A stretch of DNA of 20,000 nt from an uncultured virus (IMG/VR IMGVR_UViG_3300028888_000068). Lineage: Duplodnaviria > Heunggongvirae > Uroviricota > Caudoviricetes. The translations under genes were made by a program, and so were the position numbers. Position 1 is the stretch's first letter, and each line of letters opens with the position of its first letter. The notes below the pieces were generated by a model that saw only the letters and a list, made by a program, of their open reading frames with translations, did no database searches and had not been told where the DNA came from. Location: IMG/VR virus record IMGVR_UViG_3300028888_000068, one strand, 5' to 3'. Below are positions 861-15,760 of this stretch, one piece after another.

Positions 861-942
861 TTAGGTTTTGTGTTGAAAGTTTTTAATTCATTTATAAGAG
901 TATGAGGGCCGTGAAGTCTGCTCCTGTTTTTAGGGGGTACCA

Positions 943-1035
943 AGCGGATATAGCAGGCTTGGCCAAGACGATGATGATTCCCACAAAGGCCGCAACGATG
1001 ATGATGAGCCTGCTAGAAACCAATACTGTTCCGCT
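943..1035 (-). ncRNA. Putative small RNA with two AUCAUCAUCGU loop repeats
   Basis: Stems AGCGGA/TCCGCT (943-948/1030-1035) and TAGCAGGCT/AGCCTGCTA (951-959/1007-1015); 11-nt direct repeats at 968-978 and 995-1005; minus-strand promoter motif at 1069-1078. Confidence 0.5.
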
Positions 1036-1111
1036 AAAAATATCGCGGCCCTATTCATACTCAGTTCTCATTTATAAGAATTTGAGGGTTTCTTAGTTAC
1101 CCTCTTTTTTG

Positions 1112-1182
1112 TTGAGATGTAGCGATTCGAACGCTAACTAAGGGAACCAAAATCCCTGGTGCTACCATTACACCACATCTCA
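1112..1182 (-). tRNA. trnQ: tRNA-Gln(UUG)
   Basis: Cloverleaf TGAGATG-TG-GTGT-AATGGTA-GCAC-C-AGGGA-TTTTGGT-TCCCT-TAGT-TAGCG-TTCGAAT-CGCTA-CATCTCA-A; no encoded CCA. Confidence 0.95.
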
Positions 1183-1265
1183 ATTCCATTTATAAGAATT
1201 TAAGGGCCTCGTAGTTTCCCTTTTATTTCTCTTTAAAGCCTTATAGATGAAAACCAATACATGAT

Positions 1266-1475
1266 ATGAAAGAATTAATTTTAATGCGCCTTGCGGCTAC
1301 TAAAATTAAGCTTATAACGGCGCGGGAAAAGTTGGTTGCTGATTTCAATGAGATTGAAAAGCAACTAGAAGTTCTTGAAAAGAGAATTGCTAATGCTGAG
1401 AGCGCTGAGGAGATCTCCAACGCGCTTGGAACGGCTATTCAATTCTTAGATTCTTATGAAAAGAAGGGAAACTAG
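1266..1475 (+). CDS. Small hypothetical coiled-coil protein
   Basis: 69-aa ORF with promoter motif at 1240-1249 and a terminator hairpin overlapping the stop. Confidence 0.8.
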   Translation: MKELILMRLAATKIKLITAREKLVADFNEIEKQLEVLEKRIANAESAEEISNALGTAIQFLDSYEKKGN

Positions 1476-1487
1476 CCCTTCTTTTTT
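1462..1487 (+). terminator. Rho-independent terminator
   Basis: AAGAAGGG-aaactag-CCCTTCTT followed by a T tract. Confidence 0.7.
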
Positions 1488-1592
1488 ATTCCCTTCTATA
1501 TCCCTTCAAAACCTTATATATGTAGAAGATACCTAAAGACTAAGACTGACGCTTTGGGTATTTTATGTCTTTAGTCAGTCAAGAATTAAGAT

Positions 1593-1778
1593 ATGGAATT
1601 TTTTGCTATATTGGCATGGCTTGGGAAAGTCATTGCCATGTTCGCCGCATTGGCGATCCTGGTCCTGGTCATTATGGCCTGGGCTGGGAATACAATGAAA
1701 AAGTCCCGGGAAGCCCGGGAAAAGTCTAACTCCGTCCTGCAGAAGTGTGGGCGCGGTGACATCCGGATTCAGAAATGA
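1593..1778 (+). CDS. Small single-pass membrane protein
   Basis: 61 aa with hydrophobic N-terminus and basic tail; promoter motif at 1513-1522; ATCCGGAT hairpin plus T tract at the stop. Confidence 0.75.
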   Translation: MEFFAILAWLGKVIAMFAALAILVLVIMAWAGNTMKKSREAREKSNSVLQKCGRGDIRIQK

Positions 1779-1881
1779 TCCGGATTTTTATTTCCCCCAA
1801 AGCCTTATATATGTAGAGGAGCTAAATTTTATTATATAGCCAGGCCTCTACATTTTGTAAACTACTAAAACCAAACCTACT

Positions 1882-2016
1882 ATGAGCAACATAGAAACTG
1901 TTGTATTGGTGATTACTGGGTCTCTTGGACTTATGTACATCACCTACATATCTGGGCTCATTGTAATCTCTTTATTCAAGGGATTTTTGACGAGCCTGAA
2001 GAAATGGGGAAAGTGA
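1882..2016 (+). CDS. Small hydrophobic membrane peptide (44 aa)
   Basis: Translated by hand: MSNIETVVLVITGSLGLMYITYISGLIVISLFKGFLTSLKKWGK; A-rich leader; promoter motif at 1804-1813. Below the ORF-track size cutoff. Confidence 0.7.
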   Translation: MSNIETVVLVITGSLGLMYITYISGLIVISLFKGFLTSLKKWGK

Positions 2017-2048
2017 AAACTTTCTTCATTTTTTTATCCTCTCAAATT

Positions 2049-2128
2049 CTTATATATGACTTTTTAACGTCTTGTTTGACATCGGTGCTAGAGAATATCT
2101 GGGGAGGTATCTCTAGCACTATTTTCTT
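2049..2128 (+). ncRNA. ORF-less micro-transcription unit A (putative sRNA)
   Basis: Motif CTTATATATG at 2049-2058, about 26-nt body, hairpin GTGCTAGAGA...TCTCTAGCAC at 2085-2119, T-rich tail. Confidence 0.55.
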
Positions 2129-2144
2129 TGTCTCCTTCTAATTC

Positions 2145-2223
2145 CTTATAAATGAATTTAGCTTATTCATATTTGGTATTAGGAAGGGTAGTCCTCGGTT
2201 GCAAAACTGGGGGCTACTTTATT
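2145..2223 (+). ncRNA. ORF-less micro-transcription unit B (putative sRNA)
   Basis: Motif CTTATAAATG at 2145-2154, about 30-nt body, GCAA-capped hairpin at 2186-2219. Confidence 0.55.
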
Positions 2224-2265
2224 GATAATGATAAAAAAGAAGGAAAATAGCTTCCTTCTTTATTT

Positions 2266-2433
2266 TCATAGCGGGACAATTATATATTCTAATTCATTGA
2301 GGTCTCCGATATCAAAAGCTTCGGATTCTGCTTTTCTTTTTGCTCGTTCGGCCTCTCTTTTAGAATTATAAGTTCCTACCAACATGCCGTTTTCTAAAAG
2401 TCCCCACGGCTCATACTTTTCTTCTTTTGCCAT
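2266..2433 (-). CDS. Hypothetical protein (probable start MAKEEKYEPW at 2433)
   Basis: Part of the 2266..2496 ORF; the internal ATG gives only a short overlap with the upstream gene; terminator hairpin at about 2235-2262. Confidence 0.65.
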   Translation of the reverse strand: MAKEEKYEPWGLLENGMLVGTYNSKREAERAKRKAESEAFDIGDLNELEYIIVPL

Positions 2434-3043
2434 CTTCTTTATCTTTTCTAAAACTCGTCTTCTTGTCGAACCCATGACTCTCGGCCTTTTCTTCATCGGT
2501 TCTTGAATCTGTTATTACCGGCTCTTTCATTTTCAGGAGATAGTTATAAATTCCGTTCCATATTTCTTGAGCCGAGAGAAATCCGATGAGAGGGAGGCCG
2601 ACCAGGATAGGGTTCTTCACATAATCCCAAGAATCCCATCGTGAACCAGTCTCTCGATAAGCTAAGACGAGAGGAGCCTGTGGAGATATTAGTTCTTTAT
2701 CAACTCCATAATAAGGATCGGATACCCACCAAGGCATCCAACTCTTTTTCTTCTGATTCTTTAATTCTCCATCCATATCGTATTCCTCAACGGTGAATTT
2801 TATATTATCACCGTCATAATCTCTATTGACAAGGAACCTCTTTTTATAATCTTCGCCTGCCTGAATATATAAGTAGTAATTTCGGCTAGGCTCATTTTTA
2901 AGAGAGTTGAATGGCCTATGGTATCCGTCAAGCTCTTTTCTTGCTACAACGGAATTTCTTCTATCATATACTACATACTCATCTATGCCATTTATTCCGG
3001 CAAGATAATCGTAAAAATCTTTTTTGTTATCTATTATTTTCAT
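2411..3043 (-). CDS. Hypothetical phage protein (210 aa)
   Basis: Long ORF with protein-like composition; minus-strand motif variant CTTATTGATG (3046-3055) lies 2 nt before the ATG. Confidence 0.9.
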   Translation of the reverse strand: MKIIDNKKDFYDYLAGINGIDEYVVYDRRNSVVARKELDGYHRPFNSLKNEPSRNYYLYIQAGEDYKKRFLVNRDYDGDNIKFTVEEYDMDGELKNQKKKSWMPWWVSDPYYGVDKELISPQAPLVLAYRETGSRWDSWDYVKNPILVGLPLIGFLSAQEIWNGIYNYLLKMKEPVITDSRTDEEKAESHGFDKKTSFRKDKEDGKRRKV

Positions 3044-3065
3044 ATCATCAATAAGGCTTTAATCC

Positions 3066-3136
3066 CTTATATATAAGTTTCATATAATGATAGGTTTTAA
3101 GTCCGGCTATTGTGATAATACCCGGGCTTTTTTATT
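3066..3136 (+). ncRNA. ORF-less micro-transcription unit C (putative sRNA)
   Basis: Motif variant CTTATATATA at 3066-3075, 24-nt body, hairpin AGTCCGG...CCGGGCT at 3100-3128, T tract. Confidence 0.5.
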
Positions 3137-3161
3137 TATACCGCCCAGGAAGCCTTAATTC

Positions 3162-3272
3162 CTTATATATGTAGGTTTAGGTTTTAGTACACAACGGGCC
3201 GACAAACTATTAAAAAGATCTGATTTATGTCGGCCCTTAATTATTAACTAAAACCTAGGAAAACTATTTTTT
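3162..3272 (+). ncRNA. ORF-less long-hairpin unit D (putative sRNA)
   Basis: Motif at 3162-3171; stems TAGGTTTTAGT/ACTAAAACCTA and GGGCCGACA/TGTCGGCCC; T tract at about 3267-3273. Confidence 0.5.
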
Positions 3273-3287
3273 TCGTCCTATTAAATC

Positions 3288-3359
3288 CTTATATATGAAA
3301 TTTTCATGTAGTTACATTTGCCGGAGTCCAGTTGTTGCGAAACACCTGGGCTTTTATTT
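3288..3359 (+). ncRNA. ORF-less micro-transcription unit E (putative sRNA)
   Basis: Motif at 3288-3297, 27-nt body, GCGA-capped hairpin AGTCCAG...CTGGGCT at 3325-3352, T tract. Confidence 0.55.
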
Positions 3360-3379
3360 GTCCCTTTAAATTCTTATAT

Positions 3380-3622
3380 ATGAAAATGACAAATATTGAA
3401 AAAAGAACTTTAAAAAGAAATCGAAGAGTACGAAAAAAGTATTTTAAGATTTTTTATAAAGACGTAAAAAGAGCACTAGCAACAGATTATCCAAAAACTG
3501 AAAATGGAGACTTATTTAAAAGTCTAGAGATACTTGCAGATAACCCGGTGCTACTGTTCAAAGCGGACATGGAAGAGAAGCATCATGTTGCAGAGGTAGT
3601 TTTGGTAGATTCATTAAGTTGA
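3380..3622 (+). CDS. Hypothetical basic protein (start at 3380 or 3386)
   Basis: The ORF-track start at 3332 lies inside a terminator hairpin; the in-frame ATGs coincide with or follow the promoter motif at 3373-3382. Confidence 0.7.
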   Translation: MKMTNIEKRTLKRNRRVRKKYFKIFYKDVKRALATDYPKTENGDLFKSLEILADNPVLLFKADMEEKHHVAEVVLVDSLS

Positions 3623-4323: not shown

Positions 4324-5076
4324 ATGAGAAAATTACTTCTTATTATAGACCCTCAATATGATTTTGTAAATCCTTACGGGTCTTTATTCGTTAATGGGGC
4401 TCCAGAAGCTATAAAGAATATTGCATCTTATATAAGAAAGCATGGAGAAGATCTTTCCGGAATAGCAGTAACTATGGATACTCACCATAAGTATCATATT
4501 GCTAATCCTGGATATTGGAGCCCTAGACCAAAGCCATTTACCAGAATAACTGCGGAAGACGTCGCTTCTGGAAAATTTAGGCCAATTAAGGAAGAGTATA
4601 GGGAGACTACTAAAAGTTATTTAGCCTCTATTGACGGAATAACAATCTGGCCAGAACATTGTCTGGAAGGTTCTCCTGGTTGGGCAATGCCTCGTGAGCT
4701 TTCTGAGGCTATTCATGAGTGGGAGCTTCAAACAGAGCCGGTAGAGTTTGCAGAATACTATCAAAAAGGAACAAATCCTACTTTTGAAGCATTCTCATTA
4801 TTCACAGAGGCTCCAGGAATGGAAGGTTACCGGCCCTATGCAGACATCAATGTATTCTCAGACTATGATAAAATTGTAGTTTGCGGTTTTGCAAAAGATG
4901 TCTGTGTAGCAAATACAGTTATGGATATGCTTAGAGATGGAGAAGAATATTACAGAGATAAGCTAATGTTCTTTGAAGATGGAATGGCTAGCATTGATCC
5001 AGAAAGTCCTATGAACCAGGTATTTCAGGATGCTATTCTGCAGTTTGGTGCTGAATTAGAAGTTGATATAAATTAA
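4324..5076 (+). CDS. pncA: Nicotinamidase (isochorismatase/cysteine hydrolase family)
   Basis: LLIIDPQYDF (catalytic Asp), DTH metal ligands, WPEHC, QKG (Lys), VCGFAKDVC (Cys nucleophile); neighbours pncB. Confidence 0.9.
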   Translation: MRKLLLIIDPQYDFVNPYGSLFVNGAPEAIKNIASYIRKHGEDLSGIAVTMDTHHKYHIANPGYWSPRPKPFTRITAEDVASGKFRPIKEEYRETTKSYLASIDGITIWPEHCLEGSPGWAMPRELSEAIHEWELQTEPVEFAEYYQKGTNPTFEAFSLFTEAPGMEGYRPYADINVFSDYDKIVVCGFAKDVCVANTVMDMLRDGEEYYRDKLMFFEDGMASIDPESPMNQVFQDAILQFGAELEVDIN

Positions 5077-5137
5077 AAACAATAAAGGCAGAAAAATAAA
5101 CTGCCTTTCTCTTTCCTCGCTTTTCCTTATATATGTT

Positions 5138-5575
5138 ATGTATATACTAGTAAATAAGAAACCAGTTGATGTATTTAAAATAGATGCCGTATCTTCAATT
5201 ATTCCGTTAGATATGAAAAGGTATAGAGCAGCGGTTAATTATCTTGAAGATCCTACTTTTGAAGGATTTCGTAAGAGGAAGATACAAGCAGATAAAAAGA
5301 AATCACAAAATATAGTAGAAAACATTATTAAATATATGATTAATGATGTTAGACACGAAGACTATAAAACGATGACAGGATATATTCCTACTAAATTTTC
5401 CGATGATTATGAGAAAAAGAATCTTGGATACTACTTTTGTATATCGCCGGGAAAGGATGAAGACTATATTTGTTCTAGAATATACAAAACAGAAGCAGAA
5501 GCAGAGAAAAACTTAAAAGATTTTCTTGAGCTTATAAATACCGTTAGAAGCATAGTATCTGAAATTACTATTTAG
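5138..5575 (+). CDS. Hypothetical protein (145 aa)
   Basis: ORF begins 2 nt after the promoter motif at 5126-5135. Confidence 0.85.
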   Translation: MYILVNKKPVDVFKIDAVSSIIPLDMKRYRAAVNYLEDPTFEGFRKRKIQADKKKSQNIVENIIKYMINDVRHEDYKTMTGYIPTKFSDDYEKKNLGYYFCISPGKDEDYICSRIYKTEAEAEKNLKDFLELINTVRSIVSEITI

Positions 5576-5638
5576 AGAGGACCTTAGAATCCTCTCTTTA
5601 AATCCTTATATATGAAAAATTATTAATTAAACACAAAA

Positions 5639-6826
5639 ATGGAAGGAATTATTAAATCAAAATTAGAAAATGACCTTTACAAATTTTCAATGAGTTATTT
5701 CTATATGATGAAATATCCCAAAGCACAAGGGATTTTTGCATTCCATGATAGAAATAATTCCACATATACGAAGGAATTTGTGGAAAGGCTTAAGAAGGAG
5801 ATACGGCTGTTTGCTGAACTAAGAATGACCAACGAAGAGTTCGAGTGGGCAGTTAAGAATATCCCGTATATCCCTAGATTTTTCTGGGAATGGTATCGTG
5901 GCTTCCAATTTGACCCTTCGGCTGTATCTATAAGCCTGGATTCCGAAAACCATCTTAAAATTTCGGCCTCTGGATATCTTTATCAGATTACTTTTTGGGA
6001 GGTTCCTATTCTCGCTATGGTGTCTGAGATTAAGAATGAACTTGAAGGAAATATCGAAAAGCTTGATGTTAACAAGTTTACTGATGCTCTAAAGAGAAAA
6101 ATCAAACTTTCTAATGACAATGGAATGAAATTTTCTCTCTTTGGAATGCGGCGGAGATTCAGTGGCCCACTGGAGGCTCAGGTAACGGATATTTGCAGTA
6201 GAGAGGCAAAATATTGTGTTGGAACATCCAACGTCTGGTTTGCTTATGTCTATCATATGAGACCAACTGGAACGCTCGCCCATGAACTTATTATGGCAGC
6301 AGGAAGTTGGTATGGTTACAGGATGGCTAACTGGAGAGTGATGGAAGATTGGTCTAGTGTCTTTGGAATTGACCTTGGAACTATGCTGATCGATACCTTT
6401 ACCTGTGATGTATTCTTCTGGAATTTCACAAGGGAACATGCTCATCTATTCTCTTCGTTGAGAATCGATTCTGGTGATGAGTATGAAATTGCTGATAAAG
6501 CTATTAAATCATATCAGAAACTTGGAATTGATCCAACTCAGAAAACTCTAATATTCTCAAACTCTCTTAATTTCCCTAAGGCACTTGCTATTCAGCAGTA
6601 TTGTGGAGATAGAATCAAGACTAGCTTTGGAATTGGAGGAAATCTTACAGCGGATGTTCCCGGAGTTAAGCCTAGCAATATCGTTATGAAGCTATCCCGC
6701 TGTAGATTGACAGAAGATATGGATTGGCGAGATTGCATTAAAATCTCAGACGATCTAGGCAAACACATGGGAAATGAGATTGAGCTAGAGAGAGCCTTAA
6801 TTGAGCTAGAAATAAAGAATCCTTAA
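5639..6826 (+). CDS. pncB: Nicotinate phosphoribosyltransferase
   Basis: ENDLYKFSM, FGMRRRFS, GTSNV, GTLAHE (phospho-His), RIDSGD, IFSNSL, FGIG, NIVMKL, KISDDLGKHMG; 395 aa. Confidence 0.96.
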   Translation: MEGIIKSKLENDLYKFSMSYFYMMKYPKAQGIFAFHDRNNSTYTKEFVERLKKEIRLFAELRMTNEEFEWAVKNIPYIPRFFWEWYRGFQFDPSAVSISLDSENHLKISASGYLYQITFWEVPILAMVSEIKNELEGNIEKLDVNKFTDALKRKIKLSNDNGMKFSLFGMRRRFSGPLEAQVTDICSREAKYCVGTSNVWFAYVYHMRPTGTLAHELIMAAGSWYGYRMANWRVMEDWSSVFGIDLGTMLIDTFTCDVFFWNFTREHAHLFSSLRIDSGDEYEIADKAIKSYQKLGIDPTQKTLIFSNSLNFPKALAIQQYCGDRIKTSFGIGGNLTADVPGVKPSNIVMKLSRCRLTEDMDWRDCIKISDDLGKHMGNEIELERALIELEIKNP

Positions 6827-8661: not shown

Positions 8662-10248
8662 ATGGCAAAAGTAAAACCCTGGGTGAAGATTGTAGGAATT
8701 GCACTCGTCGCCGCTGGCGTTGGACTTGGTCTTAACGCCGCTGGAGTCTTCAAGGGCTCTGAAAACAAAACCACTACTGAAAAAAGCAGTGGAGAGAAGA
8801 AACCCTCTGGAATTTTTGGAGGGAAAACTAAGAAAATTGACTACATAACTGTAGGAACCAACACCTATGCTGGCTTCTTGCCATTTATGTATCTCAACAA
8901 CGGCCTGGAACCGAACGAAGACTGTATTCTCTATAAGGAGTATGGCCTTAAGATGAAAGTTGTCATTCAAGACGACTTCCAGGCTGGACGTATGGCTTTC
9001 AAAAATGGAAACATTGACGTTATCTACTGTACTGTCGATGCTATTCCCGTCGAAATGGGCGAAGGTTCTGAAATGACGGACGCTAAGGTCTTCAACCTCA
9101 GTAACTGGAGCCGCGGAGCAGATGCTATCGTTGTCGGAAAAAATATTAAGAAGGTAGTAGACCTTATCGGCAAAGTAGTAGCCTGCTCTGAAGGAACGGC
9201 CAGCCATACATTACTTCTCAATACCCTTGAGACCTCTGGCATTGGTTACGATAGAGTTAATCTCAAATCCTCTATCGAACCTGACAAAGTTAATATTAAG
9301 GTAGTAGGCTCTGGGCTCGATGCTGCTGCTGCATTTAAGGCAGGTGCTTGTGATGCTGCTGTAGTGTTTTCACCGGACGACCAGGACCTTGTAAATTCTG
9401 GACTCGGTCATGTCCTAGTCTCTACCAAGCAAGCCTCTAGTATTATCTGTGATGGACTTATTGCAAAACAGGATTTCATTGACGCAAATCATGAAAATCT
9501 TGAAAAACTTATCGGCGCTCTCTTGTCTGCTAATGTCAAGATGAATACTGATATGTCCGCCGTCCGTCAGGCAGCACGATATTTTGCCAAAGCTTATGGA
9601 ACAGACGAAGATTTTGCCATCGAGGGTTCTAAAAACATTTACTACGTAACCCTTGAGGATGAAGCCAATTTCTTCGGACTTAGGTCAGACTATACTGGAA
9701 TGAAGGGAGACGAGCTTTATTCCAAGATGGCTAGAACTTATAGCGGTCTTGGTCTAGTTCGGAATCCCATTTCCTGGAGAAAAGCTTCTGATGATTCAGT
9801 TATTGAGGCTCTTCTCGGAAAGCCAGACTTAACTTCCGGAAATCAGGCTGCAGAAACTGGACCTGAATTTGAAGAAAGAGCCGGCCTAGAAACCGCTCCC
9901 GTATTCTCAAACAAGTCAGTTACCATTGAATTTCCGACAGGTTCTGCTACGCTCGATAACAATGGAAAAACAATTATCGATCGAGAGTTTAAGACTCTGG
10001 TTAAGCAGTTCTCTGGAGCTCGGTTTAGAGTTGAGGGAAATACTGACAACACTGGCTCGGCTGCAACTAATGAGGCACTGTCTAAGAGGCGTGCTCAGGC
10101 TGTTGTAGATTACCTAGTCAGAGAATGCGGTGCTGATAGAAATCAGTTTACTGTTGTAGGCAATGGTTCCAAGCATGCAATTGATGCTGGTTCCAAAGGC
10201 TCAGATAGTAGATACAGAACTACTGATCTTTTACTGATCAGTGAATAA
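8662..10248 (+). CDS. ABC substrate-binding protein (NMT1/SsuA/TauA-like) fused to a C-terminal OmpA-like peptidoglycan-binding domain
   Basis: N-terminal signal/anchor; SRGADAIV..DLIGKVVACSEGTASH PBP2 segment; C-terminal IEFPTGSATL..VEGNTDNTGS...NEALSKRRAQAV OmpA_C motif. Confidence 0.92.
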   Translation: MAKVKPWVKIVGIALVAAGVGLGLNAAGVFKGSENKTTTEKSSGEKKPSGIFGGKTKKIDYITVGTNTYAGFLPFMYLNNGLEPNEDCILYKEYGLKMKVVIQDDFQAGRMAFKNGNIDVIYCTVDAIPVEMGEGSEMTDAKVFNLSNWSRGADAIVVGKNIKKVVDLIGKVVACSEGTASHTLLLNTLETSGIGYDRVNLKSSIEPDKVNIKVVGSGLDAAAAFKAGACDAAVVFSPDDQDLVNSGLGHVLVSTKQASSIICDGLIAKQDFIDANHENLEKLIGALLSANVKMNTDMSAVRQAARYFAKAYGTDEDFAIEGSKNIYYVTLEDEANFFGLRSDYTGMKGDELYSKMARTYSGLGLVRNPISWRKASDDSVIEALLGKPDLTSGNQAAETGPEFEERAGLETAPVFSNKSVTIEFPTGSATLDNNGKTIIDREFKTLVKQFSGARFRVEGNTDNTGSAATNEALSKRRAQAVVDYLVRECGADRNQFTVVGNGSKHAIDAGSKGSDSRYRTTDLLLISE

Positions 10249-14050: not shown

Positions 14051-14122
14051 GCTGGGTTCGTATAACGGTTAGTACCCGAGATTTTCATTCTCGTAACAGG
14101 AGTTCGATTCTCCTACCCAGTA
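14051..14122 (+). tRNA. trnE: tRNA-Glu(UUC)
   Basis: GCTGGGT/ACCCAGT acceptor, CGAGA-TTTTCAT-TCTCG anticodon arm, AGGAG-TTCGATT-CTCCT T arm; promoter motif at 14034-14043. Confidence 0.95.
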
Positions 14123-14128
14123 CTACAT

Positions 14129-14201
14129 CGCGGCGTAGAGCAGTTGGTAGCTTGCAAGGCCCATAACCTTGAGGTCGTCGGTTCAAGTCCGTCCGCCGCT
14201 A
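14129..14201 (+). tRNA. trnfM: Initiator-type tRNA-fMet(CAU)
   Basis: C1xU72 mismatch, A11-U24, anticodon arm CAAGG-CCCATAA-CCTTG, T loop TTCAAGT. Confidence 0.92.
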
Positions 14202-14485
14202 CTATGAAATAGGATTAAAGTCCTATTTCTTTTTTTTTCTGAAATATATGTTTTTGCCGCTCTTAGGGAGGTAAAATCTTATATATGAAGTTAAAGATAT
14301 TATTTATTGAAGCGTAATGCAAATCTATAAATGATATCTTTCTTTTCAAATAGATGTTATCATGTTTTGATAGGGAGGGGAAGTAAAAGAATAGCTACCT
14401 TTGAAAACCCTCCTGATATTAAAATATGAATTGGTATAATATTAAAAACTAGGAAGCTACTAGGATAAAAGAGGCAATTAAAACA

Positions 14486-15760
14486 ATGATAACAATTGAT
14501 GATCTCCCAGAAGAAGGAGGAAATTATGCAAAAACCAAAAAAGAGTGGGAAGAAGTAGATCACCTGTATATTCATTATTTTTATAAGATAACCAACAATA
14601 TTAATAATAAATATTATTACGGTATTCATTCTATCCTAAAAGAAGATCCAAAATCAAATGACCTAGTAAATGATGGCTATTGGGGTTCTGGTACTGCTAT
14701 TCATGAGGCTGAAATAAAATATGGGCTTGAAAATTTTACTAAAACCGTTGAAGCAATTTTTTCTACACGAGCCGAAGTTAGAATTTATGAAGCAGAAATA
14801 GTAACGCAGGAATTAGTAGATGATAGAATGTGTTATAATATGGTTCTAGGAGGATGCGAGAGTCCTATATGGCAAGGAGGATGGATATTAGTTAATTATA
14901 GAGATGAAAGTCTAAGAAAAGAAAAAATGTTCAGTATTCCAACAGAAGAATATCAAAGTAACAAAGACAAATATATAACCTCTATGTCGGGGCTTATTTC
15001 TGTTAATTATCGAGATCCAGAAAAACGACTTCCTAAATTTTTTACAATAAGTTCTGAAGAATATTACAAAAATAAAGACCTATATATAACTTCGTTTTCT
15101 GATAAAGTAGCCTATAAGAATAAAGAAAACTGGGAAGACGTTAGGTGGCTTAGCTCTGATGATCCATTAGTATTATCTGGTCAGTTTATAGGGATAACTA
15201 AGGGTCTTAAGCAATCTCAAGAAACTATAAACAAAAAGATAGGAGAGAAAAATGGATCTTATGGTAGTTTTTGGGTTACTAATGGAAAAGAAAATAAGAA
15301 AATAAGCAATCAAGATATTCCTGAGGGTTGGTGGAAGGGGAGAATTATTGATGAGACAAAAATAAAATACTGTTATATAAATATAGAAACCGGCGAACAT
15401 AAATATTTCTTAAAAACTGAGAATCCTGGACATCCTTGGTTTAAAGATTTTATGGTAGACAAAAATTTAGAAGTAATAACCATAACCAGATTAGAGGGAT
15501 ATCTAAAGGATGGAAAAACAAAAAAGGAGTTATCAGAAATTTTTGGTATATGTATAAAGTCGGTGGCCAAACTAGTAAAATATTATATAGGTCTTGGGAA
15601 ACTTGATAATAAATATTATATACTTAAAAATTCAGTTCGTCATCAGGCTAGTACTAAGTATATGTTTATTAGAGATAAAAGTACTGGAAAGGTTCGCAGG
15701 GTGTTATCTGAACAAGCCAAAAAGTTCCTAAATAATACAGATGCATTTGAAAAGCTTTAA
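14486..15760 (+). CDS. Free-standing GIY-YIG (Seg-like) homing endonuclease
   Basis: HYFYKITNNINNKYYYGIH..YWGSG..IKYGLENF..YE..YNMVLGG catalytic domain; GEKNGSYGSFWVTNG..GWWKGR DNA-binding module; possible C-terminal HTH; located in a tRNA cluster. Confidence 0.88.
   Translation: MITIDDLPEEGGNYAKTKKEWEEVDHLYIHYFYKITNNINNKYYYGIHSILKEDPKSNDLVNDGYWGSGTAIHEAEIKYGLENFTKTVEAIFSTRAEVRIYEAEIVTQELVDDRMCYNMVLGGCESPIWQGGWILVNYRDESLRKEKMFSIPTEEYQSNKDKYITSMSGLISVNYRDPEKRLPKFFTISSEEYYKNKDLYITSFSDKVAYKNKENWEDVRWLSSDDPLVLSGQFIGITKGLKQSQETINKKIGEKNGSYGSFWVTNGKENKKISNQDIPEGWWKGRIIDETKIKYCYINIETGEHKYFLKTENPGHPWFKDFMVDKNLEVITITRLEGYLKDGKTKKELSEIFGICIKSVAKLVKYYIGLGKLDNKYYILKNSVRHQASTKYMFIRDKSTGKVRRVLSEQAKKFLNNTDAFEKL

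Follow-up and report, generated by a model that had tools for sequence, protein, structure and literature searches.

Between positions 2049 and 3360 of a 20,000-nucleotide (nt) stretch of DNA from an uncultured virus (IMG/VR record IMGVR_UViG_3300028888_000068; the whole stretch is hereafter called the window), four very short units, named A, B, C and E, each join a promoter-like motif to a short 5' segment and a terminator hairpin. We propose, tentatively and at a probability of roughly 45%, that these are real small-RNA genes of a seed-plus-terminator design. Among the explanations considered this one was placed first, followed by a reading of the units as by-products of modular shuffling. 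The proposal starts from observations, namely the anatomy of the units, their modularity, the conservation of their slots among relatives, and the host homology and pairing of a further unit, D.

According to this proposal, A, B, C and E would each be transcribed independently as a very short non-coding unit, and the part of the Lak-like megaphage genome in which they lie is hyperplastic, i.e., packed with small, individually transcribed genes. Transcription would start from a recurrent CTTATAWATG promoter and stop about 55–75 nt later at an intrinsic terminator, yielding a small RNA with a free 5' segment of 20–30 nt followed by the terminator hairpin, a build that D has as well. The 5' segments could then serve as base-pairing seeds on messenger RNAs (mRNAs) of the phage or its host, the likeliest sites being A/U-rich translation start regions without a Shine-Dalgarno sequence, as the D seed appears to use.

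Anatomy of the units

Each of the four units consists of the motif, a mostly unpaired 5' segment of 23–33 nt, a hairpin and a T tail, and the order of open 5' segment, terminal hairpin and T tail was found in all 13 units folded from the window and its relatives. The description of A, B, C and E in an earlier note, made from the letters alone, as promoter, CAT-containing body and terminator hairpin is thus borne out by motif enrichment (24 copies against 3.13 expected), folds and T tails; its list of units was right as far as it went and lacked unit D, which lies between C and E. The features are as follows (coordinates, strand, description, basis).

2049..2058, plus: promoter motif of unit A, CTTATATATG (motif enrichment)
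2059..2083, plus: 5' segment (body) of unit A, unpaired, with CAT (fold, sequence)
2084..2130, plus: terminator hairpin of unit A (2084–2120) and T-rich tail (fold)
2145..2154, plus: promoter motif of unit B, CTTATAAATG (motif enrichment)
2155..2184, plus: 5' segment of unit B, in which ATTCAT forms a 6-base-pair (bp) inverted repeat with the promoter's ATGAAT
2185..2226, plus: terminator hairpin of unit B (2185–2220) and tail (fold, relatives)
2236..2261, no single strand: bidirectional terminator between the plus-strand cassettes and the convergent minus-strand genes (2266–3043)
3066..3075, plus: promoter motif of unit C (motif enrichment)
3076..3098, plus: 5' segment of unit C (sequence, relatives)
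3099..3138, plus: terminator hairpin of unit C (3099–3129) and T tail (fold, relatives)
3162..3276, plus: unit D, with promoter (3162–3171), seed GTTTAGGTTTTAGTACAC (3175–3192), inner hairpin (3196–3236), anti-seed (3247–3258) and T run
3288..3297, plus: promoter motif of unit E (motif enrichment)
3298..3322, plus: 5' segment of unit E; its TTCAT and the ATGAA of the promoter make up a 5-bp inverted repeat
3323..3360, plus: terminator hairpin of unit E (3323–3354) and tail (fold, relatives)

The predicted folds are strong for unit A (–24.8 kcal/mol, z –5.85) and unit B (–23.5 kcal/mol, z –4.19), with none of 200 shuffles as good in either case, and weak as single sequences for unit C (–13.9 kcal/mol, z –2.0, 11/200 shuffles as good) and unit E (–15.9 kcal/mol, z –2.2, 5/200). 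The units sit at boundaries: after the gene of a 44-amino-acid (aa) protein, before the bidirectional terminator, or between divergent promoters. The motif of unit C has A in place of a final G and forms a palindrome with a minus-strand copy (3077–3069), which faces the gene of a 210-aa protein.

No conserved open reading frame (ORF) was found on either strand of the units. Minus-strand genes were considered and rejected: the reverse-complement strings quoted in the earlier note have correct letters, but as gene starts they stop after 8–11 codons and belong to no genes. A 42-aa minus-strand ORF (2042–2170) needs TAG to be read as glutamine and crosses unit A, which the relatives lack, and plus-strand mini-ORFs from the ATG of the motif vary in length and frame among relatives. 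Rfam gave no gathering-score match at the units, the best scores being 29.4 bits for Ref1C (threshold 90) and 25.4 bits for L20_leader (threshold 58.7).

A recurrent promoter motif

YTTATAWAT occurs 24 times in the window, compared with 3.13 copies expected (standard deviation 1.95, maximum 9; none of 200 shuffles reached 24); its extended form is aaaTYCTTATAWATG, in most cases directly after a hairpin and T run. Half of the copies (12/24) lie within 898–3373, and those at 2049, 2145, 3066 and 3288 belong to units A, B, C and E. Since the motif precedes transfer RNA (tRNA) genes, at 5 nt upstream of tRNA-Gln (minus strand) and 8 nt upstream of tRNA-Glu, and stands directly before many ORFs, reading it as a promoter is reasonable on sequence grounds. 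Sigma-70-type sites were not enriched in the window (62 against 59.5 expected).

Beside this, tRNA-Gln (1111–1182, minus strand) and the pair tRNA-Glu and tRNA-Met (14051–14202, plus strand) have their own motif copies 5–8 nt upstream, and the ORFs at 3380, 12474, 12922, 18469 and 5138 begin at the motif's own ATG or 1–5 nt later, which suggests mRNAs that are leaderless or nearly so.

Slots and rates of change among relatives

To collect relatives, metagenome contigs were scanned at the protein level, the 210-aa protein (2411–3043, minus strand) serving as query, and 22 loci emerged. Synteny at the DNA level was seen in six of them, with identities of the 210-aa protein of 95, 92, 87, 87, 75 and 46%. 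They represent the lineages L001 (equal to L006 over the cassette stretch), L002 (equal to L003), L004 and L005. Splitting the loci at the promoter motif gave the following slots, of which L004 does not cover C, D and E.

Slot A: present in the window; absent from L002/L003, L001 (L006), L004 and L005
Slot B: present everywhere; L001 and L004 share a different terminator, L005 has a third one
Extra gene (about 100 aa) after B: present in L001 (L006) and L004; absent from the window, L002/L003 and L005
Slot C: present in the window and L002/L003; small membrane-protein gene in L001 (L006) and L005; L004 not covered
Slot D: present in the window, L002/L003, L001 (L006) and L005; L004 not covered
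Slot E: present in the window, L002/L003, L001 (L006) and L005; L004 not covered

Unit B is thus found in all five lineages, and D and E in all four that cover them, including L005, whose neighbouring protein is 46% identical. The start of the B body, GAATTT..CATA..T, is invariant in 5/5 lineages although three unrelated terminators follow it: the hairpin of the window is 97% identical in L002, whereas L001/L004 have one unrelated hairpin and L005 another. The earlier view of the cassettes as modular is supported by unit A, an insertion/deletion (indel) bounded by T-tail/promoter repeats. In L002, which lacks A, the terminator tail of the 44-aa gene directly joins the B promoter, and the joint resembles a fusion of the T-tail/promoter repeats found on either side of A in the window.

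Identities between the window and L002 are as follows.

Unit B: body 81%, hairpin 97%
Unit C: body 44% with an 11-nt indel, hairpin 93%
Unit E: body 69% with indels, hairpin 79%

The promoters are 76–96% identical in the same comparison, and the D seed is free of substitutions. Stem pairing is kept by changes on both sides, in unit C of L002 at one pair (CCGG/CCCGG to CCAG/CCTGG) and in unit E of L001 (AGTCCAG/CCTGGACT to AGTCTAG/CCTAGACT). An apical TTGTGATAATA is common to the terminators of C, L002-E, L005-E and L005-pre, on quite different stems. The type of unit recurs in the lineage, as L005 (reoriented, 917–1200) holds three more tandem mini-units upstream of its first small gene; the hairpin tips of these mini-units carry GTGAT as well.

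Unit D and a small-RNA-like gene of Bacteroidales

Unit D has a predicted 100-nt structure of –31.5 kcal/mol (z –6.8). In four Lak-like phages its anti-seed (..ACTAAAACCT..) pairs back on the seed after the inner hairpin, and the T run comes after the outer stem of seed and anti-seed. The seed is identical in the window, L002, L001 and L005. The same 18-mer, GTTTAGGTTTTAGTACAC, is present in five IMG/VR contigs (L023–L027) of three unrelated phage lineages, none of which gave a blastn match to the window; in L023 and L024 a GC-rich hairpin comes next, with a tRNA gene behind it, and in L026 no tRNA was called.

Furthermore, the 18-mer occurs once per genome in at least 120 species genomes, nearly all labelled Bacteroidales (host loci L149–L228), with carriers including Cryptobacteroides, Rikenellaceae, Alistipes, Muribaculaceae, Prevotellaceae and Alloprevotella, and two of the carriers are complete chromosomes. 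The exact seed was found in 4/301 evenly drawn Bacteroidales genomes, so the host gene is patchy. Across 76 host loci, the consensus ahead of the 18-mer reads, in order, T-rich tract, TGCAAC, a spacer of about 15 nt, TGCATCTAT, 5 nt more and AG; downstream of the 18-mer come a hairpin that varies and then a T run. In a MAFFT alignment of 63 host loci the first 20 columns are invariant, and double-sided changes occur at each of the four consensus stem pairs. The flanking genes vary (an FtsX/LolE-like permease in two genomes, peptidyl-tRNA hydrolase with L25 in two; names given from reading N-terminal sequences, not from database matches). The host small-RNA-like gene matched no Rfam 15 family, and the seed string was not found in the literature searched. 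Phage D lacks the host-type element TGCAAC-N-TGCATCTAT and has the phage promoter motif in its place; host genome G157, among 401 searched, has 31 nt in common with D, including ..CTTATATATGTAG. Judged from these sequences, D is a phage copy of the host small-RNA-like gene, the RNA of which it may either mimic or sponge via the anti-seed. The body of unit C holds TAGGTTTTA, a 9-mer in common with the D seed, and C could have arisen as a duplicate of D that has decayed or varied.

The D seed is complementary to the translation start region of the 44-aa membrane-protein gene (1861–1884, plus strand; ATG at 1882), with a predicted duplex of –19.1 kcal/mol. The next best of 31 gene starts reached –11.3 kcal/mol, and shuffled seeds attained –19.1 kcal/mol in 13/500 trials. 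Weaker pairing is predicted at the same place in L002 (–15.5 kcal/mol), L001 (–15.1) and L004 (–12.9). The match with the 44-aa gene was noticed post hoc, and that relatives conserve it is not independent evidence. In five carrier genomes, 6 of the 12 non-self copies of the 10-nt anti-seed core ACTAAAACCT stand at a translation start (defined as at most 20 nt upstream of, or on, the ATG of an open frame with 80 codons or more), compared with 2 of 25 for a control 10-mer of the same composition (Fisher one-sided p = 0.008). Given the seed pairing with the 44-aa gene start and the anti-seed core at host starts, D and the host small-RNA-like gene probably address translation start regions, and by analogy with D a start-codon antisense action of A, B, C and E is plausible. 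In the five host genomes the gene itself was the sole perfect or near-perfect complement of the D seed, and complements with at most three mismatches numbered 44 against 146 for the control.

Several candidates were set aside. Recurring ACTACAACCTSAA matches in host genomes lie inside ORFs and were rejected as targets. BLAST of 2040–3370 against 401 Bacteroidales genomes (two candidates scored per genome) gave mostly A/T-rich noise, the matches at the C terminator being ordinary host terminators. The S. copri small RNA SrcF, at 272 nt, is unrelated. Two further observations concern host loci. At L304 (G326), the 22 nt just upstream of the ATG of a ferredoxin-like gene are identical to 3235–3256 in the 3' half of D, including the anti-seed; the E-value of 0.0019 applies to that genome, with 401 searched, and the match may be chance. 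At L324 (G001) and L329 (G157), a second class of host transcript with TGCAAC..TGCATCTAT begins ..GATTGGCAAATCAA.. after a terminator, and this element may define a small regulon.

Comparison with known systems

Trans-acting bacterial small RNAs of the sigmaE-dependent RybB/MicA type combine a conserved 5' seed with an intrinsic terminator. The units resemble them in having their own promoter, a free 5' end of about 20 nt, a terminator hairpin and a predicted size of 55–100 nt, and D with its host relatives shares the invariant 5' end and a complement enriched at translation starts. In contrast, A, B, C and E have no known target and, apart from part of B, no known conserved seed.

Another close likeness is to the promoter-early stem-loop (PeSL) cassettes of T4-like phages (PMC2839356; PMC4122927), which, in the accessible text of these sources, likewise join a strong promoter to a terminator stem-loop in a composite that recurs, chiefly where small non-essential genes make up a hyperplastic region, and the gene-sized indels that distinguish relatives are bounded by these repeats. 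The window shows the corresponding features, i.e., a repeated composite of promoter and stem-loop and motif-bounded indels in a small-gene region. Its joined terminator, T tail and promoter work in the manner of PeSL (PMC2839356, accessible part), which accounts for both the modularity and the A indel. The PeSL model does not obviously account for slot-keeping mini-genes, the conserved start of B, or D. Moreover, the promoter of the window, aaaTYCTTATAWATG, differs from the sigma-70 consensus of PeSL as accessibly described, and in the present case a short transcribed body precedes the stem-loop, which makes promoter and hairpin a complete mini-gene. The accessible parts of PMC2839356 and PMC4122927 describe neither small RNAs nor PeSL pairs around a stretch as short as about 25 nt; in the latter, "sRNA", "small RNA" and "empty" do not occur in the accessible text. 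No mini-circle joints were seen in the RNA-run contigs described below, which are assembled contigs only.

Regulatory small RNAs of phages and prophages act on host or phage transcripts (10.1101/2024.10.31.621285; PMC13502914, both in their accessible parts). Compared with those described there, the present row comprises four to six mini-genes, its bearer is a virulent-type Bacteroidales megaphage of about 0.5 Mb, and one member, D, copies a host small-RNA-like gene. RNA anti-CRISPRs (Racr; PMC10651486, accessible part) are also short, hairpin-dominated non-coding phage RNAs, but no resemblance of the units to CRISPR repeats was found in 401 Bacteroidales genomes.

Weighing the small-RNA reading

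Several results weigh against the units being small-RNA genes. Unit A was found only in the window, the C slot is taken by a small membrane-protein gene in L001 and L005, and in C and E the body, at 44 and 69% identity and with indels, changes more quickly than the sequence on either side. Target tests were confined to phage DNA, namely the 20 kb of the window (a few percent of a genome whose size is probably close to 0.5 Mb) and the 7–10.6 kb loci of L001, L002 and L005. For the best ungapped antiparallel pairing across the whole window on both strands, with a body's own locus omitted and dinucleotide shuffles as controls, shuffles equalled the bodies in 124 (A), 134 (B), 286 (C) and 94 (E) of 300 cases. 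For duplex energies at 31 gene starts (–35 to +9), they did so in 148 (A), 140 (B), 33 (C) and 268 (E) of 400 cases, the best gene-start match of unit C being its own palindromic promoter region. In the relatives' own loci, seven of eight pairing tests were unremarkable; the single low value, L002-E with 3/300, is about the chance yield of eight tests. The post hoc nature of the D pairing belongs here as well. Finally, Prevotella phage Lak-B4 (L148, whole record) has 14 motif copies compared with 24 for a reversed control and lacks the D seed; with neither motif enrichment nor seed there, the cassette system is specific to the window's own lineage.

The RNA libraries count on the same side in one respect: the four animal-gut metatranscriptome runs that hold parts of the region are assembled contigs, which may include DNA and in which transcript starts, ends and sizes are not visible. 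Runs X1 and X2 contain 0.81 and 0.50 of the sampled words, respectively. On the supporting side, one contig of run X1, identical to the window, bridges 1505–3025 with A and B inside, which indicates presence only. The stretch 3026–3398 with C, D and E is uncovered in all four runs, both flanks being covered, as contigs stop at 3025–3038 and resume at 3399–3432. RNAs as small as the units are usually lost from such libraries, and the gap is therefore not evidence of absence. Contigs of X1 and X2, two runs of one sample, stop alike at 3025 and carry sequencing-adapter letters there; this point is 18 nt within the 210-aa ORF.

The main competitor, which we consider possible though unlikely, takes the units as by-products of modular shuffling, i.e., promoter–terminator pairs from the gain and loss of small genes between repeated cassettes. 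Any RNA would then have no sequence-specific role, and the pairs would at most insulate neighbouring units. Such an origin agrees with unit A coming and going as a block between two repeats, with the gene in the C slot, with bodies that diverge fastest and with the empty target searches in the window and relatives; the terminators form a paralogous family, implying frequent duplication or recombination, and PeSL cassettes mediate shuffling of this kind (PMC2839356, accessible part). It is harder to reconcile with slots B and E being kept in all covering lineages down to 46% neighbour-protein identity, with a B body start that stayed invariant though the terminator was swapped twice, and with D, a conserved RNA gene of the same build. 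In addition, recombination of two such repeats gives one hybrid repeat and not an empty unit; as the A-less junction leaves just one hybrid repeat, promoter-repeat recombination does not obviously yield a promoter, 25 nt and a terminator.

It appears improbable that the bodies act as antisense RNAs, each blocking initiation on one particular mRNA of host or phage through pairing of its CAU with the AUG there. A CAT is indeed present in each of the four bodies (twice in E), but, as the earlier note itself cautioned, CAT is common, with a probability of 0.21–0.27 per plus-strand stretch of the same length. By hand count it occurs in six of eight body families across relatives (binomial chance of at least 6/8, 0.002–0.011), a count made after the pattern was noticed, so that its significance is overstated. 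The CAT is kept at a homologous place in B (5/5) and is present in E (4/4), and the D seed and its host relatives do appear to address translation starts. On the other hand, that of unit C has no counterpart at the homologous place in L002, the D seed has no CAT, and the promoter's ATGAAW makes a 5–6 bp inverted repeat in B and E of which the CAT belongs to the far arm, offering an explanation in cis, as a 5' hairpin or operator-like palindrome, that needs no trans target. The start-codon version is a possible special case; the analogy with D speaks for it, and this inverted-repeat account of CAT weakens it. As to the targets, no body exceeded shuffles in the window, at the 31 gene starts or in the relatives' loci; this agrees with the earlier statement that the window holds no matching gene start and does not support the claim that the bodies are antisense to gene starts. 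Of the idea of trans-acting antisense RNAs, the modular, non-coding seed-and-terminator build is supported, as is the analogy with D, and the start-codon complementarity is not.

The same inverted repeats could mean that the ATGAAW..WTTCAT palindromes are cis-acting operators or 5' hairpins, with the units serving as promoter-proximal attenuators, RNA polymerase decoys or insulators between convergent or tandem genes, which we regard as more improbable still. Repeats of at least 5 bp that include the promoter ATG occur at 13 of 57 promoter instances, B and E among them, repeats of 7–9 bp (ATGTAGAGG..CCTCTACAT) close 5' hairpins of neighbouring mRNAs, and the units are placed at boundaries. However, each gene downstream of the units has its own promoter copy, A and C lack the repeat, and the 5-bp cases are not individually significant (shuffle fractions 0.09–0.22). 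Least probable by far are RNA anti-CRISPRs, in which the hairpins would mimic host CRISPR repeats as solitary repeat units. Phage RNAs that mimic repeats are known (PMC10651486, accessible part), and the apical part of the C/E-type terminators is conserved while their stems vary; yet a GUGA-type apical loop is a simpler cause of that conservation. The 16-nt loop pattern (one mismatch allowed) was without regularly spaced arrays in 401 Bacteroidales genomes, a search that amounts to no exclusion since the phage's own host was not identified, and all 14 host loop copies inspected lie in coding or repeated (insertion-sequence-like) genes and not in hairpins.

Beyond the preferred reading as small-RNA genes, a more far-reaching version, quite unlikely in our view, would see the row at 2049–3360 as a battery of phage small-RNA genes with 5' seed and terminator, of which D was captured from Bacteroidales and the others were retargeted. 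The D seed would address translation start regions without a Shine-Dalgarno sequence, and A, B, C, E and the units of the relatives would carry fast-evolving seeds, swapped by cassette recombination, that could retarget the mechanism to host mRNAs (e.g., of defence or receptor genes) or to phage mRNAs.

Identity of the phage and neighbouring genes

A 528-aa OmpA-domain protein (8662–10248) is 64–65.5% identical to a protein in all Prevotella phage Lak-A, Lak-B and Lak-C genomes, and GenBank phages show no DNA-level similarity to the window except at tRNAs. On this basis, the window is assigned to a distant Lak-like megaphage, the full genome of which is probably near 0.5 Mb. The window also has four tRNA genes and encodes a tail-fibre-like protein, nicotinate phosphoribosyltransferase, an isochorismatase-domain protein and an ABC ATPase. 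A search of IMG/VR with the two neighbouring proteins found no relatives, and a gapped DNA pattern gave 120 matches there, all by chance and none akin to the window.

The isochorismatase-domain protein and nicotinate phosphoribosyltransferase are encoded by adjacent NAD-salvage-like genes (4324–6826), beyond which lie the ABC ATPase and an OmpA/NMT1-domain protein, the latter common to Lak phages. A homing-endonuclease-like ORF (14486–15760) adjoins the tRNA cluster. GC skew tracks gene strand, without sign of a replication origin within the 20 kb. Two tiny membrane-protein genes (61 and 44 aa; 1513–2016, and in relatives) each have a structured 5' leader, and in L001 and L005 a T run follows the first leader hairpin, which is attenuator-like.

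Implications

Bacteroidales have neither Hfq nor initiation led by Shine-Dalgarno sequences, and to our knowledge small-RNA regulation is poorly charted in them and essentially uncharted in their phages. In the accessible text of the Lak papers PMC6784885 and PMC8346664, "promoter" and "small RNA" do not occur. Should A, B, C and E prove to be real small-RNA genes, they would show a megaphage using riboregulators as a modular set, and if the more far-reaching version applied, the row would be a reprogrammable RNA toolkit for host takeover. Unit D offers a concrete handle in this context: it copies a conserved host small-RNA-like gene, which matches no Rfam 15 family, and has predicted sites at phage and host translation starts, and these features open the mechanism to testing by reporter fusions and compensatory mutations.

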